From Pseudobdellovibrionaceae bacterium (lineage in GTDB: Bacteria; Bdellovibrionota; Bdellovibrionia; Bdellovibrionales; Bdellovibrionaceae): a stretch of DNA of 17,753 nt. A model generated the notes under the pieces. That model made no database searches. It was given only the letters and a program-made list of their open reading frames with translations, and had not been told where the DNA came from. The stretch is from assembly GCA_044359815.1 (NCBI GenBank), contig JBIKLL010000059.1, positions 1 to 17,753 on the forward strand. Direction: 5' to 3'. Each line of letters begins with the position of its first letter. Position 1 is the first letter of the stretch. Positions 5,771-11,059 of this stretch are shown in pieces. A program made the position numbers and the translations under genes.

Positions 5771-6436
5771 ATGCTTTCACATGTGAAACAACCGGCAGTC
5801 TTTCGCCATATCAAAATTCAAAAACAAAAAGACCTATTAAAAGCAGTATTTATTTACTTAGTGGGCTTGGTTTTAGTGTCTTTAACTTTTCATGCTCAGG
5901 CAGCTGACAATAAAAAATCAAAGGAGATCAAACAGATGAACGCTATTTTCGAAACTTCTGAAGGAACATTCAAAATCAAATTATTTCACGATAAAGCCCC
6001 TAAAACTGTGGCTAACTTTGTGGATTTGGCTGAAGGAAACAAAGTAAATGAAAAAACTAAAAAGAAAATCGACAAAAAATTCTACGACGGAATCATTTTT
6101 CACCGAGTGATCCCTGATTTTATGATTCAAGGTGGGGATCCAGATGGCAATGGTACTGGCGGACCTGGTTACAAGTTCGATGACGAAATTGCTTCAGGCT
6201 TGTCGCATAGTAAACCTGGGATTCTTTCGATGGCAAACAGTGGACCAAATACAAATGGTTCTCAGTTTTTCGTAACTGTAAAGCCCACACCTTGGCTGGA
6301 TGGTAAGCACGCAATTTTTGGTGAAGTTATCGAAGGCATGGATATCGTCACTAAGATTTCTACTGTAGCCCGAGACGGTTCTGACAAACCGAAAACTCCG
6401 GTTGTGATCAAGTCTCTCAAAATCGAAAGACTATAA
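5771..6436 (+). CDS. Cyclophilin-type peptidyl-prolyl cis-trans isomerase with N-terminal signal/anchor (alternative start at 5936)
   Basis: Motifs 'APKTVANF', 'FHRVIPDFMIQGGDP', 'GILSMANSGPNTNGSQFF' and 'WLDGKHAIFGEV'. SD AGGAG at 5761-5765 and a second SD AAGGAG at 5921-5926 before the in-frame ATG at 5936. Confidence 0.95.
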   Translation: MLSHVKQPAVFRHIKIQKQKDLLKAVFIYLVGLVLVSLTFHAQAADNKKSKEIKQMNAIFETSEGTFKIKLFHDKAPKTVANFVDLAEGNKVNEKTKKKIDKKFYDGIIFHRVIPDFMIQGGDPDGNGTGGPGYKFDDEIASGLSHSKPGILSMANSGPNTNGSQFFVTVKPTPWLDGKHAIFGEVIEGMDIVTKISTVARDGSDKPKTPVVIKSLKIERL

Positions 6437-6600
6437 AAACTAAAGCGCAAAAAAAGATCCAGAGTTTATATTATTACTTAAAACGGTTACAGCCTCATGC
6501 TTCATCCGCTCGGGCATAGCCCCCGCCATCCTGGCTCCGCGGAGAACCATTTTAAGTAATAATATAAACTCTGGATCTTTTTTTGTGCTTTGGTTTTTAT
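6433..6600. repeat. Long inverted repeat: 56-bp arms (6433-6488 and 6545-6600) around a 56-nt GC-rich core
   Basis: Arms match at 53 of 56 positions, including a perfect 36-bp stretch (6448-6483 with 6550-6585). Arm GC is 14/56 (left arm) versus 38/56 in the core. Pairing extends to AAAGACT (6426-6432) with AGTCTTT (6604-6610) across a 3-nt bulge. Confidence 0.95.
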
Positions 6601-6637
6601 TGAAGTCTTTTTTGGCGCTGGAGGAACAGGTCAAAAT

Positions 6638-6667
6638 AAAAAACCCGCTTTTTGAGCGGGTTTTTTT
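6638..6667. terminator. Bidirectional rho-independent terminator
   Basis: AAAAAA-CCCGCT-ttttg-AGCGGG-TTTTTTT, located between convergent genes (cyclophilin on +, 216-aa gene on -). Confidence 0.9.
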
Positions 6668-6695: not shown

Positions 6696-7346
6696 TTACT
6701 TCTTAGCGCAGTTCTGACGGATGTTTTCTAAAATCTTATCAGCTCTGTCACCGTACTCTTTTTTAACCCATACTTCGAAAGCCAGGTCTGCTTTACCGTT
6801 AACAATATAGTTTCCGCTAGCATCTTTAGCATCAGATTGAATTGTCTTAAGTGTACCATCTACAGCTTTTAACCACAAAGTTTTGTTGGAAGCGTTTTCC
6901 ATAACTGGAATATCAGGAAGGTTTCTTACAAACAGATCAAAAGTTTCGCTATTTTCTACTGAAGTTTCATTCATTCGAGACATCAAATCTACGATTGATT
7001 TCAGTTCAGCTTCTTTGATCAATGTGAAAGAAGGGTCTGTTTCCTTCAAGATTTGAAGAGTTGAAACTAGCTTTACAACTGCATCAACTTTGTTTTGACT
7101 TCCGCGATTTAAAATTGACGCTAACGCCTGAGCTTCAGTTGAACCAACAACAGTTGAAGAAGTCAGTTCTACAATTCGGGCACCATTACGTGCAGCCAAA
7201 TCAGCTTTTTTAGCTTTATTCTCAGCTTCAATTTTTGGAAGACGGTCTCTAGTTTTTATTCCTGGTCCGGCTTCTTTTGGTGAGGCCGCTATAGCTGCCA
7301 TCGGAAGAGCAATTAATAGCCCCGTTACAAATTTCATTACCTTCAT
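6696..7346 (-). CDS. Secreted hypothetical protein (216 aa, predicted alpha-helical)
   Basis: GGAGG SD at 7351-7355 and a Sec signal peptide MKVMKFVTGLLIALPMAAIA. No family recognised. An alternative ATG lies at 7337. Confidence 0.85.
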   Translation of the reverse strand: MKVMKFVTGLLIALPMAAIAASPKEAGPGIKTRDRLPKIEAENKAKKADLAARNGARIVELTSSTVVGSTEAQALASILNRGSQNKVDAVVKLVSTLQILKETDPSFTLIKEAELKSIVDLMSRMNETSVENSETFDLFVRNLPDIPVMENASNKTLWLKAVDGTLKTIQSDAKDASGNYIVNGKADLAFEVWVKKEYGDRADKILENIRQNCAKK

Positions 7347-7446: not shown

Positions 7447-10400
7447 CTAGTTGCCACTATTTGCTAAACAATCTTTGTCAGTGGTCTTACCAGCTAATCC
7501 TTGGTTCCTGTTACAGTTTTTATGATTACCTGAGTCCAGAGCCTGGCCATCAGCAGCGTGCTTATCTTTGTAGCTAACTGCAAAAATATTTGCTCCATAA
7601 TTCATCAGTTCTGCATTGATTTCGCCTAACCCATTAATAATTTTTAGAATCATACGGGTTCTGAAATCCATCTGACCTGTCATCATTGATTCTATGTCAG
7701 GCGGAATAAATACCTTTTTTAGATTTTGGATTTCCTGATTCAAATCTTCAATAGCCTGTTTTAATTGGGCTGAGGTCACCTCTGTTTGCAGTCTCTTGTT
7801 TCCACGCTGGACAATTTTTCTGAATAAAGACTCGACTTTATCAAATGCCATTAATGCTTTAGCTTGAAAATCCAAGTTTGAGTTGTTAGGGAATTTGAAA
7901 ACCCCATTGTTTGTAATATGCCCAGAAAATTTCCGTCCAAGCCAATCTATATCCAAATAGTCCACTTGTTTAAAAATACTTAGTAAATTAAGTCCTATAG
8001 CCATTTTAACATTGGCTTCTGGCCCCAACTTTTCCACTGGGTAAGACTCTAAATTATCCTTAGTATGTTCTGGCAACAAAACTTCTGGAATTTGCCAATC
8101 AGGTTTATAAACAGGGAGCTGTCCCAAATCCGGTGCATAAATACCGGGTTCAAACTGATTCCCATATTTATAAATGTCGCCTAATACTGATAAATATAAT
8201 CTGTATTGTTGCTTCATAGATAAAATCAATCCGATTGCACCAGGGCCAGTATTGTAAGACCCAATATCATCAATGGTCCCAACGTTTTCAGCACGGAACA
8301 TCCTTTGATACAGTTCAAAAACCATATTTTTGTATTCGGACTGAAAATAGTCCCATCCTTTTAAGTATTCTGGTGCTACGTTTTGAGTCCACCAACTGGT
8401 AAATAGAACATCCGCTGATTGCCTGCTATTGCCTTTATTTGTGTTTTTTAGAAAAGAATAATTATTAACATCCATTAAATATTCTAAGATCGATGAATAG
8501 CTTTTTAGAATTTGTTGTTTATTTCTTGGATTGGAATACACACTTTGTTTGTTGCCTGATTTCATCAAATAAAATGGTGTTTGATACACGTCTGCTTCTC
8601 TGCGGGTCACAACTCTATCGGTATATGGATAACCCGCTCGAAAATCAATACCGGTAGAAGTGTTCAAATTAACTATGCTAGGTGGATTGAAAGCTCTGTA
8701 AAAACCCTGACTAAAAAATCCATCGGTATCATCAACCATTCCTGAATTGGCTTTAGGCTCGGGTCCCCAAATCATGGATACCATCATTTTTTCCCACTGA
8801 CTTTCTGTTTTGAGCCCCATTAAATTGGACTGGTTCGGCATTGTCCATTTCAATCCCTCGATCTCGGGAACTGAATTGGATTTTTTAGAATACAAAATAA
8901 AACCTTCGCCCTTATTCATTATAGGCCTCGGTGGTATGCCTGGCTCTGCTGCGAACTTCATTTGCAGATCCATAAGTGCTTTTTTATTTTCACTATTTGT
9001 ATTGTTTATTTCTGTTTGCAAACCAACAAACAATTTTCCTATATTATTAAGTCTTGTTAAAACATCGGGTCTTTGCCTAAGCCCGTCTGCTGTAGCTCCG
9101 TTTCTTTTGTCAAATTCCTTTAAGAAAGTCGCTTCAGACTTAAGTTCTTTTGCAAATTTAAAGTAAAATTTCGTTTTATCTTTTGGTTGCAGTGATTTCC
9201 CGTGCTGCAATTCAATTGCAGACAAAATCGAATCAACGTTGGAAATCAGAAAACGAATTTGCTGTACAGTAACCAAAAATGGATCTCGCAGATAAATAGA
9301 AGGGTCAGAGGTTTTCACCTGCTCCTTAATTCCATTAAGCGGATACAATAACTGAGATGATTGAGCCTTGTTTTCATTACCCGCAGCATTTGCAGCTTCT
9401 TTTACTAAATATGAATAAATCGACCGTGATACGTCATATGTCGACATATAATTTGAAATTAGGTCTTTCCAGTTTTCTGATGAATATGTGATGTCTTCGA
9501 TTTGCTTTTGACGCCATTGACCCATTTTTTTGTGTAACCGATCAAATGTAAGCTCCAATACATTCGGACACTCACCATTTAAACTGGTATCTTCCTGGTA
9601 TTGATAAAACTCAAAGGTTTCACATTTACCCTTCATCACTGTTTTAAAATCTTGATCTGAATTGAAAAACCAATTGTTGGCTTTTGCTTGCATTAAAGCC
9701 CTAACAAAATCTAGTTGCTTGGCCTGTAAATTTATTCCACCAAAAACACTGTTATAAATCCTTGCTGTGGGTTTTGCGAAAATTACCTGATCCAAACCAA
9801 CAAACAAAGCAAATATCAACACTCCACCCGAAAATGACAAACCCATTCTGGCTGCGCCAGCCACGCCGGAAGCTGTAGATTGAGCAGCTGCTGACAAACC
9901 GGTTATTCGCAATACAAAGGAAAATCCGCGGAACACCATATTCTGTGAAGCCCGCTTACTCATAATTCCTAACAACTGATTGGCTGCAAAAGCCGCAGAG
10001 GAAGTTTTGTTCAATACTGATTGGCCTACACTCATAATTACCGAAGAAGCCACATTGCTCAGAATCATCGAAGTCAATACAGGAGCCTCAGCTGACAACC
10101 TGTCACCAGAATCCCATTTCCAGAATTCATTGTAGGCCAAATCACAGCTTTTTTGATCCTTCAATTTTGGATCTTTGGGTGCGATTCCCATTACACAATC
10201 TGTAAGATGCGGAAAATAAGCAATTTCATGAACAATACTGGACGCCAAAGATCCAAAGGTCATTCCAAGATTTGAAAGAAAAAAAGTTCTAAAATTCATT
10301 CTTTGCTTTGCCATCGAATTTCGAACTTCTGCAGAATATACCATAGGAATTTCTTTGTTCATTCCGAACGCTTTATTCAGAAGCTCCACTGAAACTCCAT

Positions 10401-10995
10401 TAACAATCATAAATGTATAAAATCCGATATGGGCTACTGGGTCTGCCAATCCTTCGATTTGACGAGTGAAGGCCAAGGGGTCATTGGATTCACCAGCAAG
10501 CATCATATTAAAATAAGTCACAGATCCTATTGCTAAAAAAAACTTAAAAGATTCCATAGGAAATCTCATGGTCACGTCTTTGACGATATGTGATCCTTTG
10601 TTGCCTGCGGCTTTAACTAGGGCTTCGGCTTTTAATAATGTCTCTTCTATTTTGGAGGGACGGTAGGCTTCCTTTTCATCGGGTGTGCCTCTAGGAATTT
10701 CAATTTTTAAAGTCTCTATTCTGCCTGGATTTGTTTCCCAAGAACTTCCAGATTCTGGAAACTCTATAAGCATAAAACGTTTTGCTGAAGGATCGTTGGG
10801 ATTGTGTTTTTCAAAACGAGCACGATAATTTTTTGGATTTAAGCCCGCTTGTTCAAAAACATCCAGAATTTCTTGCTGTTCTTGCAGATGCGGTGGCAGG
10901 GGGCGCCTGTTCCCATTGGCGTTGGCCATTGGAGCAGCCGTCATGATTGAATTAAACAAAAATACAGCACTGATAAATATATTTAAAGTCTTCAT
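7447..10995 (-). CDS. Large secreted hypothetical protein (~1182 aa) with an N-terminal hydrophobic helix cluster
   Basis: 3.5-kb ORF. Start placed at ATG 10995, which follows an AGGGA SD and gives the signal peptide MKTLNIFISAVFLFNSIMTAAPMANA (track start is 11022). Contains six Cys in three local pairs. No recognisable family. Confidence 0.85.
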   Translation of the reverse strand: MKTLNIFISAVFLFNSIMTAAPMANANGNRRPLPPHLQEQQEILDVFEQAGLNPKNYRARFEKHNPNDPSAKRFMLIEFPESGSSWETNPGRIETLKIEIPRGTPDEKEAYRPSKIEETLLKAEALVKAAGNKGSHIVKDVTMRFPMESFKFFLAIGSVTYFNMMLAGESNDPLAFTRQIEGLADPVAHIGFYTFMIVNGVSVELLNKAFGMNKEIPMVYSAEVRNSMAKQRMNFRTFFLSNLGMTFGSLASSIVHEIAYFPHLTDCVMGIAPKDPKLKDQKSCDLAYNEFWKWDSGDRLSAEAPVLTSMILSNVASSVIMSVGQSVLNKTSSAAFAANQLLGIMSKRASQNMVFRGFSFVLRITGLSAAAQSTASGVAGAARMGLSFSGGVLIFALFVGLDQVIFAKPTARIYNSVFGGINLQAKQLDFVRALMQAKANNWFFNSDQDFKTVMKGKCETFEFYQYQEDTSLNGECPNVLELTFDRLHKKMGQWRQKQIEDITYSSENWKDLISNYMSTYDVSRSIYSYLVKEAANAAGNENKAQSSQLLYPLNGIKEQVKTSDPSIYLRDPFLVTVQQIRFLISNVDSILSAIELQHGKSLQPKDKTKFYFKFAKELKSEATFLKEFDKRNGATADGLRQRPDVLTRLNNIGKLFVGLQTEINNTNSENKKALMDLQMKFAAEPGIPPRPIMNKGEGFILYSKKSNSVPEIEGLKWTMPNQSNLMGLKTESQWEKMMVSMIWGPEPKANSGMVDDTDGFFSQGFYRAFNPPSIVNLNTSTGIDFRAGYPYTDRVVTRREADVYQTPFYLMKSGNKQSVYSNPRNKQQILKSYSSILEYLMDVNNYSFLKNTNKGNSRQSADVLFTSWWTQNVAPEYLKGWDYFQSEYKNMVFELYQRMFRAENVGTIDDIGSYNTGPGAIGLILSMKQQYRLYLSVLGDIYKYGNQFEPGIYAPDLGQLPVYKPDWQIPEVLLPEHTKDNLESYPVEKLGPEANVKMAIGLNLLSIFKQVDYLDIDWLGRKFSGHITNNGVFKFPNNSNLDFQAKALMAFDKVESLFRKIVQRGNKRLQTEVTSAQLKQAIEDLNQEIQNLKKVFIPPDIESMMTGQMDFRTRMILKIINGLGEINAELMNYGANIFAVSYKDKHAADGQALDSGNHKNCNRNQGLAGKTTDKDCLANSGN

Positions 10996-11059
10996 ATACA
11001 TCCCTATCATTGCAAGGCGCATACTATCAATAATTTCAATAACTTACACATTCTTATGA

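Follow-up and report, generated by a model that had tools for sequence, protein, structure and literature searches.

An intergenic hairpin at the end of a cyclophilin gene in a Pseudobdellovibrionaceae genome, probably that of a lake bacterium, belongs to a dispersed repeat family, here called family A, whose members carry a conserved folded core between long inverted arms. The window, i.e., the whole stretch of DNA that was analyzed (17,753 nucleotides), holds one such copy. Within this genome and its relatives, the family displays a multi-copy core, mirrored copy-specific arms, joint change of the two arms, a flipped core, arms that lie in host genes, and patchy presence at orthologous sites. 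The account we favor, and on balance hold to be probable, is that family A is a TwoAYGGAY-like core on arms homogenized by template switching, spread non-autonomously and in trans by an HUH tyrosine transposase of the TIRYT type.

The element and its surroundings comprise the following features, numbered from the first letter of the window.

5771..6436, plus strand: cyclophilin (peptidyl-prolyl isomerase) gene, PF00160; the final 11 nt fall within the left arm and its tip
6426..6610: whole hairpin including the arm tips, with long arms around a GC-rich core
6426..6432, plus strand: arm tip of 7 bp within the cyclophilin coding end, pairing with 6604-6610 over a 3-nt bulge
6433..6488, plus strand: left arm, 56 bp, 25% GC
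6489..6544, minus strand: conserved core of family A, 56 nt; the minus strand is the TwoAYGGAY-like strand
6491..6501, minus strand: small hairpin 2, whose loop lacks GGA in the window copy
6505..6543, no strand assigned: inner stem, in which 6505-6509 pairs with 6539-6543 and closes the junction of two small hairpins
6512..6522, no strand assigned: GC hairpin with a variable loop of 2-4 nt
6525..6535, minus strand: small hairpin 1, with the minus-strand loop AGGAT (a GGA loop)
6545..6600, plus strand: right arm, the left arm inverted (53/56)
6604..6610, plus strand: inverted partner of the arm tip
6638..6667, no strand assigned: stand-alone stem with A and T tracts on either side, a putative terminator
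6696..7346, minus strand: convergent host gene, 216 aa, with no Pfam match over cut-off

Recomputed, the two arms match at 53 of 56 positions with a longest perfect run of 36 bp, and GC content rises from 25% in the left arm to 68% in the core, all as in the preliminary description. The three mismatches fall at arm positions 9, 15, and 52. The fold is a single long stem with a 7-bp extension (z = -15.8 as DNA and -17.0 as RNA), and none of 200 shuffled sequences folds as well. The left arm does start inside the cyclophilin gene and hold its stop codon, as had been noticed: the gene ends at 6436 and the arm begins at 6433, placing 4 nt in the main arm and 7 more in the extension, where the pairing across the bulge into the last codons was recovered in the fold. 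A gapped 7-bp extension of this kind would arise by chance at 1.5% of loci, and extensions of 7 bp beyond the arm ends occur in 2 of 55 copies against 0.8 expected, which is suggestive of a meaningful tip at the window copy and of no general rule for the family. Cyclophilin orthologues have their stop codon in the same position (the ending ...ERK*, for example, is found in 4 of the 14 parsed relatives), and a comparable hairpin is absent at all 14 parsed orthologues (24 fetched). These are distant genomes and do not provide clean empty alleles of the kind anticipated downstream of this gene. The separate terminator claimed earlier is present as the stem at 6638-6667 with its A and T tracts, although a terminator scan lists 0 sites, this stem included. 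Further downstream, the window contains an ORF of 1191 aa on the minus strand (7447-11022).

Short-read assemblies break at the core, and among the contigs listed none spans the whole element, as would be expected of an assembly fold-back. However, in each of runs X2 and X3 (one or the other may be the source sample), one contig carries the left flank and the arm to 6477 and another carries the right arm from 6556 and the right flank, both with 0 differences, so that both arms are joined to unique flanks. The arms also differ at three positions, and the same build is found in single-contig genomes. The fold-back, which the preliminary description had itself raised, can be considered practically negligible.

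The core is the repeated unit, as had been proposed, and not a single-copy sequence: an iterated profile search of the 2.95-Mb assembly (91% complete) found 64 copies. After two contig-edge copies were left out, 62 were parsed, of which 58 are wrapped in their own inverted arms of 43-100 nt (median 58 nt) and four have unmatched arms. Arm identity is ~97% within a copy and 62% between copies (56% when shuffled), and the cores are 79% alike. In the 56 copies with no early indel, arm mismatch stays at 1-4% over the first 40 bp and rises beyond. The earlier suggestion that an arm is an inverted copy of local host sequence applies to the tips, which can mirror host coding sequence, but not to the inner ~45 bp, which obey a position-specific family consensus; closely related copies at unrelated sites have arms in common, up to 91% alike, contrary to a mainly local origin. 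Arm and core similarity are uncorrelated overall (Mantel rho -0.05, p = 0.77), which speaks against the two having simply descended together. Judging from these comparisons, the inner ~45 bp of the arms appear to travel with the core, the tips alone being host-derived. The window copy follows the consensus over the inner ~22 nt of its left arm, the remainder is near-unique, and the nearest other arm is 68% alike over positions 12-45.

A minority of copies (11 of 62 loci) retain a motif at the outer ends of the arms, at a distance of 60-64 nt from the core; it has 14 hits, on the outward strand only, where 1.7 would be expected. The motif is missing at the expected place in the window copy. Direct repeats of at least 5 nt occur at 9 of 55 ends against 7.0 expected, and of at least 7 nt at 2 against 0.4, i.e., there is no excess of target-site duplications at these 55 ends, whose fuzzy boundaries could mask short ones. 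The contrast drawn earlier with a MITE, therefore, stands for target-site duplications and is blunted by the copies that keep the end motif. An attC-like site was also considered for family A and rejected. Integron attC sites have a fixed crossover triplet; the bases flanking the core vary in concert here, leaving no fixed triplet of that kind.

Beyond this genome, the exact core was found in none of 60 relatives by DNA search and in none of 181 family genomes by a pattern allowing 3 mismatches, and two core patterns had 0 matches in viral contigs; core relatives in other genomes were reached by the Rfam model alone. A genome-collection scan yielded 19 loci, of which 12 were examined: none has a gene enclosed by its arms, as an autonomous version would, and the five lying outside Bdellovibrio-like records are armless at the match, with perfect pairing of 6-7 nt only. 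A related motif matches records titled Bdellovibrio sp. and Pseudobdellovibrionaceae. We found no published description of family A, chiefly in the open literature on TwoAYGGAY, Bdellovibrio repeats, and palindrome conversion.

The element is not the orphan it was first taken for, since its core resembles the Rfam family TwoAYGGAY (RF01731). The model scores 24.8 bits on the minus strand of the window copy, against a gathering cut-off of 43. Its seven hits in the genome are all family A copies (best 34.5 bits, none over cut-off), and weak hits occur in 14 of 150 family genomes (best 40.2 bits). When 24 loci from relatives were folded, nearly all proved to be a GGA-loop core on long copy-specific arms, single-contig genomes included, with one or two near-exact AYGGAY loops. 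As described in the available text of the sources cited, TwoAYGGAY has two AYGGAY hairpins and a poorly conserved outer stem, with CsrA binding proposed (PMC4333381, Gardner and Eldai 2015); its seed alignment has the same layout as family A (PMC2864571, Weinberg 2010); and it reaches up to 202 copies per Pseudomonas genome, a mobile-like expansion without a settled mechanism (Li et al. 2026, 10.64898/2026.09.22.753630). Like TwoAYGGAY, family A has a long outer stem of poor conservation and many copies per genome, and 32 of its 62 parsed cores carry a pair of GGA-loop hairpins on the same strand. It differs in its extra GC hairpin, its few exact AYGGAY loops, and its sub-threshold scores. The family A core is thus probably a diverged TwoAYGGAY-like repeat that falls below the Rfam threshold. 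The available main text of the 2026 preprint does not mention Bdellovibrio, RAYT, or gene conversion, and the TwoAYGGAY literature, in the portions at hand, contains no report of arms changing in step, inverted cores, captured host sequence, or Bdellovibrio.

Could family A be mainly an RNA element, i.e., a 3'-end mRNA structure or small RNA whose GGA loops bind CsrA and whose long stem is maintained because the RNA helix is under selection? GGA is found in both loops of 32 of 62 cores and in one loop of 21 (the window copy has one GGA loop), exact AYGGAY occupies the first loop of 7 of 62, and the genome encodes CsrA, the partner proposed for TwoAYGGAY. The core is conserved at fixed sites across species. 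Of the 57 copies with both neighbors called, on mechanical ORF calls, 35 have convergent neighbors, 21 have tandem neighbors, and 1 has divergent neighbors, compared with a convergent share of ~20% in comparable gaps. G-U pairs are biased to the AYGGAY strand over arm positions 1-15 (22 vs 2), which fits a functional single strand, although these pairs may instead be inherited; positions 16-45 show no excess (7 vs 10). Other observations are difficult to accommodate. The core strand bears no relation to transcription in tandem gaps (11 vs 10) and flips at a fixed site, no GGA loop was parsed in the remaining 9 of 62, and an inward-pointing sigma-70 promoter in the arms is unsupported (score 4.9 vs 4.5 +/- 1.9 shuffled). 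Two sibling families, B and C, are built alike and have no TwoAYGGAY match. Mirrored indels and near-neutral paired change, described below, would also be hard to obtain by compensation alone. As the main explanation, we regard the RNA element as unlikely; an RNA role for the core can, however, coexist with the account that we favor, and, given the GGA loops, the presence of CsrA, and the strand-biased G-U pairs of the innermost 15 bp, there is room for the core to act as an RNA or as a single strand.

The arms are homogenized locally, as had been proposed, and the most direct evidence comes from their joint change. In eight closest-arm pairs (one pair per copy, at least 78% alike), mirrored changes outnumber one-sided ones: 37 substitutions and 7 indel bases appear in both arms, and 15 differences affect one side only. 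Fixed sites in related genomes tell the same story. At the first site, in genus g9, the element is present in 4 of 30 fetched loci, all in one clade (G098, G082, G084, and G094), and most other loci have a short gap and no hairpin, so the element was likely gained there. Between G082 and G084, both arms differ at the same positions more often than chance would give (7/44, P = 1.5e-4), and the same holds for two further pairs (P = 0.005 and 0.001); the test covered these three of the six pairs, which are not independent, the other three having fewer mirrored changes. Arm divergence at this site is near third-codon divergence (0.27-0.38). At the second site, the closed genomes G099, G100, G082, and G102 have four different mirrored arm pairs, and in G102 the core is inverted relative to the same flanking genes.

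The third site lies upstream of pfkA. In one clade, the element is present there in 8 of 10 genomes, and its arms match at 29/34 to 35/35. G091 and G100 retain the right arm alone, and in G097 an unrelated core sits between similar distal arms. From its spacing, a -35 box of the pfkA promoter looks to be contained in the distal arm. The pfkA upstream gap is a repeated landing site (four genomes): L178, L180, L181, and L196 (G097, G072, G008, and G092) have an unrelated hairpin core with a family C-like junction. Two further observations concern this gap. In G082 (L174), the first loop of the core encloses a second small GGA-loop element, and in G088 (L189) there is a long run of a 9-nt tandem repeat with the codons Asn/Gly/Ala.

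The joint change of the arms points to copying of one arm from the other at the DNA level, and not to RNA selection alone. Template switching between inverted repeats is described, in the available text of the sources, as producing arm homogenization, spacer inversion, and arm extension (PMC8604942, PMC13100816, PMC5941160, PMC8794818), and all three predicted outcomes are seen in family A. We prefer it to selection on an RNA helix because of the mirrored indels, the near-neutral rates, the lack of a G-U excess in the outer arms, and the lack of a link between core strand and transcription. We consider the following scheme quite likely: a fork would stall or a strand would fold, and the polymerase would switch to the opposite arm; copying from there would erase arm mismatches, could invert the core, and could let the arm grow over host sequence until selection on the gene halts it. 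Template switching is, however, a general mutational process that does not explain the dispersal of the family or its conserved core.

Arms that reach into host genes are seen in G034, where four copies have perfect, mutually unrelated arms of 87-129 bp. Two of them overlap gene ends, by 31 and 14 nt. The 14-nt overlap takes in the 3' end of a glutathione-peroxidase-like gene, and orthologues of that gene terminate at roughly the same position, implying that this stretch of the arm is host sequence mirrored onto the other side. The genome studied here has 12 gene ends within arms, in eight copies, and at least one of the 12 looks to have been recruited from the element instead. At C122:7263 and C39:5625, two convergent genes have their stop codons at mirrored positions on the arm tips (overlaps of 3/3 and 5/5 nt).

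A sister population identified in a metagenome scan provided 12 loci, i.e., 10 distinct sites, mostly 83-97% identical to this genome. At three of them the core is absent here, and arm remnants remain with short direct repeats at the join; these are best read as losses, i.e., deletion scars, with no clean pre-insertion site among them. Such copies were likely lost by slippage between the short direct repeats. One coreless palindrome of this kind is C27:7139-7208, a deletion scar whose copy is intact in the sister population (L052). At three other sites, both populations have the element with unrelated arms. One site has family B here and two family A cores in the sister population. At a further site only one of the arms has been replaced, another site is rearranged, and the last has a flipped core that is possibly an assembly effect.

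Family A is not alone. Of the 197 long inverted repeats in the genome, family A accounts for 58, family B for 56, and family C for 18, alongside smaller groups; at least three other core families have the same build as family A. Family B, with at least 56 hairpins (e.g., C62:1957-2238 and C46:14951-15228; L058), has a different GC-rich core, often with a nested AT-rich hairpin, and no Rfam match over cut-off. Family C has ~18 hairpins (e.g., C20:49812-49996 and C2:3191-3492; L059, L067). Small hairpin families have arms that overlap or abut tRNA genes: L062 (C4:63120), L066 (C30:5135), and L064 (C107:26518-26770). Rfam matches to microRNA precursors and leaders were set aside as long-stem or terminator look-alikes below their own cut-offs.

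Family C is linked to an enzyme. The genome has one TIRYT-like gene (C8:9501-10136; NF047646, 72.5 bits against a cut-off of 80) with 26-bp terminal repeats, and this terminal repeat recurs in 19 of 34 family C flanks (38 hits against 0.2 expected). Plain TIR-only derivatives are also present (C106:25069, C122:22109, and C120:17341). In relatives, TIRYT-like genes occur in 65 of 120 genomes, with terminal repeats at 24 of 30 loci. TIRYT is classified as Y1 subclass 2.1 (PMC6006769, Quentin 2018), and repeat families derived from the TIRs of TIRtrons and TIRYT have been described (PMC3733652, Di Nocera 2013), both as given in the portions available. The resident gene with its terminal repeats, also borne by sibling family C, aligns this genome with these. 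Unlike family A, the described TIR repeats have conserved ends, and the accessible text reports no folded cargo on long variable arms; family A, in turn, lacks the resident repeat (1 hit in 124 flanks against 0.7 expected), and family B is likewise without it.

The preliminary description had looked to an HUH nuclease, a recombinase, or a reverse transcriptase beside the core copies; the sole case is a decayed, armless core ~900 bp from a Y1 gene. Cores bracket none of 38 Y1 loci and none of 30 TIRYT loci. Eight Y1 genes (PF01797, weak; C23:201, C49:93331, C48:48177, C100:636, C47:11964, C56:2996, C8:23382, and C125:2381) are 85-93% identical to the C23 copy, with upstream conservation over ~55 bp only, and several sit beside simple tandem repeats; no conserved hairpin ends or terminal repeats were found in this eight-copy family. 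The genome also encodes two XerC/D-like tyrosine recombinases, one 650-aa GIY-YIG protein, and 13 HNH genes, whose nearness to the copies was judged via the paralogue list only, and no multi-copy protein family is enriched next to family A. Eleven weak HNH matches (C28, C120, C107, C35, C34, C17, C48, C100, C19, C50, and C8) fall mostly near the end of ORFs of 230-480 aa, some of them paralogous. A reverse transcriptase (PF00078) was not found in the 91% complete assembly. REPINs mobilized by RAYTs are similar to family A in being non-autonomous extragenic hairpins with compensatory changes and a bias for gene 3' ends (PMC3116915, Bertels and Rainey 2011, in the portion available). REPINs, however, have conserved ends and a variable spacer, family A is the reverse, and its core flanks no Y1 gene.

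Two further explanations bear on how family A moves. The first is an ordinary TIRYT-type MITE whose true terminal repeats, ~63-76 nt out, have decayed, the arms being old internal sequence. It would draw on the end motif ~63 nt from the core that families A and B have in common (a matrix trained on family B locates it at 62-63 nt in family A, in 9 of 17 best hits), on the intact TIRYT ends of family C, and on the TIR-derived families already described. But the ends are the least conserved part of family A and the core more conserved than they are, which a plain MITE does not predict; duplications are not in excess; arms at fixed sites have been exchanged or lengthened in situ; and all four perfect G034 copies examined apparently lack a shared end, which suggests the same. 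The repeat profile of the relatives' TIRYTs has a weak peak at the position of the A/B motif, but does not clearly recognize that motif, with 11 flanks picked against 6 on the control strand, where ~8 would be expected at random. We find a plain MITE rather improbable.

The second dispenses with a dedicated enzyme: host recombination or template switching would move cores into existing palindromes, with AT-rich, arm-like sequences as landing pads. Different cores or families do occupy the same site in close relatives (C92, C14, and C87 vs the sister population), G097 has the distal arms of its clade around an unrelated core, and the arms of families A and B resemble each other (36% of A arms score above the 95th percentile of shuffled sequences). 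The missing reverse transcriptase and the mere two tyrosine recombinases would also fit. Nevertheless, the g9 site filled in a single clade and mostly short and hairpin-free elsewhere calls for a first insertion, and the TIRYT link of family C indicates that an enzyme-linked route exists for this build. We rate this explanation as no less improbable than the plain MITE.

Returning to template-switched arms spread in trans, TIRYT-type dispersal of family A is our preferred guess, by analogy with family C and from the shared build; the end motif that families A and B have in common also counts in its favor. Counting against this mobilizer, family A lacks the resident TIRYT repeat, bracketing of Y1 or TIRYT genes, and clean pre-insertion sites. 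Tentatively, and with rather less confidence than in the favored account as a whole, the arms and their decayed outer ends may be a chassis handled by the transposase, and the folded core a selected cargo, perhaps a CsrA-binding GGA module. A broader and more doubtful proposal, which we would not put forward as probable, is that these are modular hairpins: a self-copying palindromic chassis derived from TIRYT-type ends, with interchangeable cargo cores of which TwoAYGGAY is one, spread by an HUH enzyme and kept by template switching of arms that take over gene ends and promoters.

The orthologous series in closed genomes show joint arm change, core flip, and host capture, which makes the arm mechanism testable, and family C, with its transposase ends, offers a concrete enzyme class as a candidate. 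They also carry a warning, as covariation in the long stems of repeated motifs can arise by DNA copying. TwoAYGGAY is catalogued as an RNA of unknown function. If the modular-chassis proposal were true, it would supply the missing mobility route for TwoAYGGAY-type motifs, and much of the stem covariation of TwoAYGGAY would come from DNA copying and not from RNA selection.
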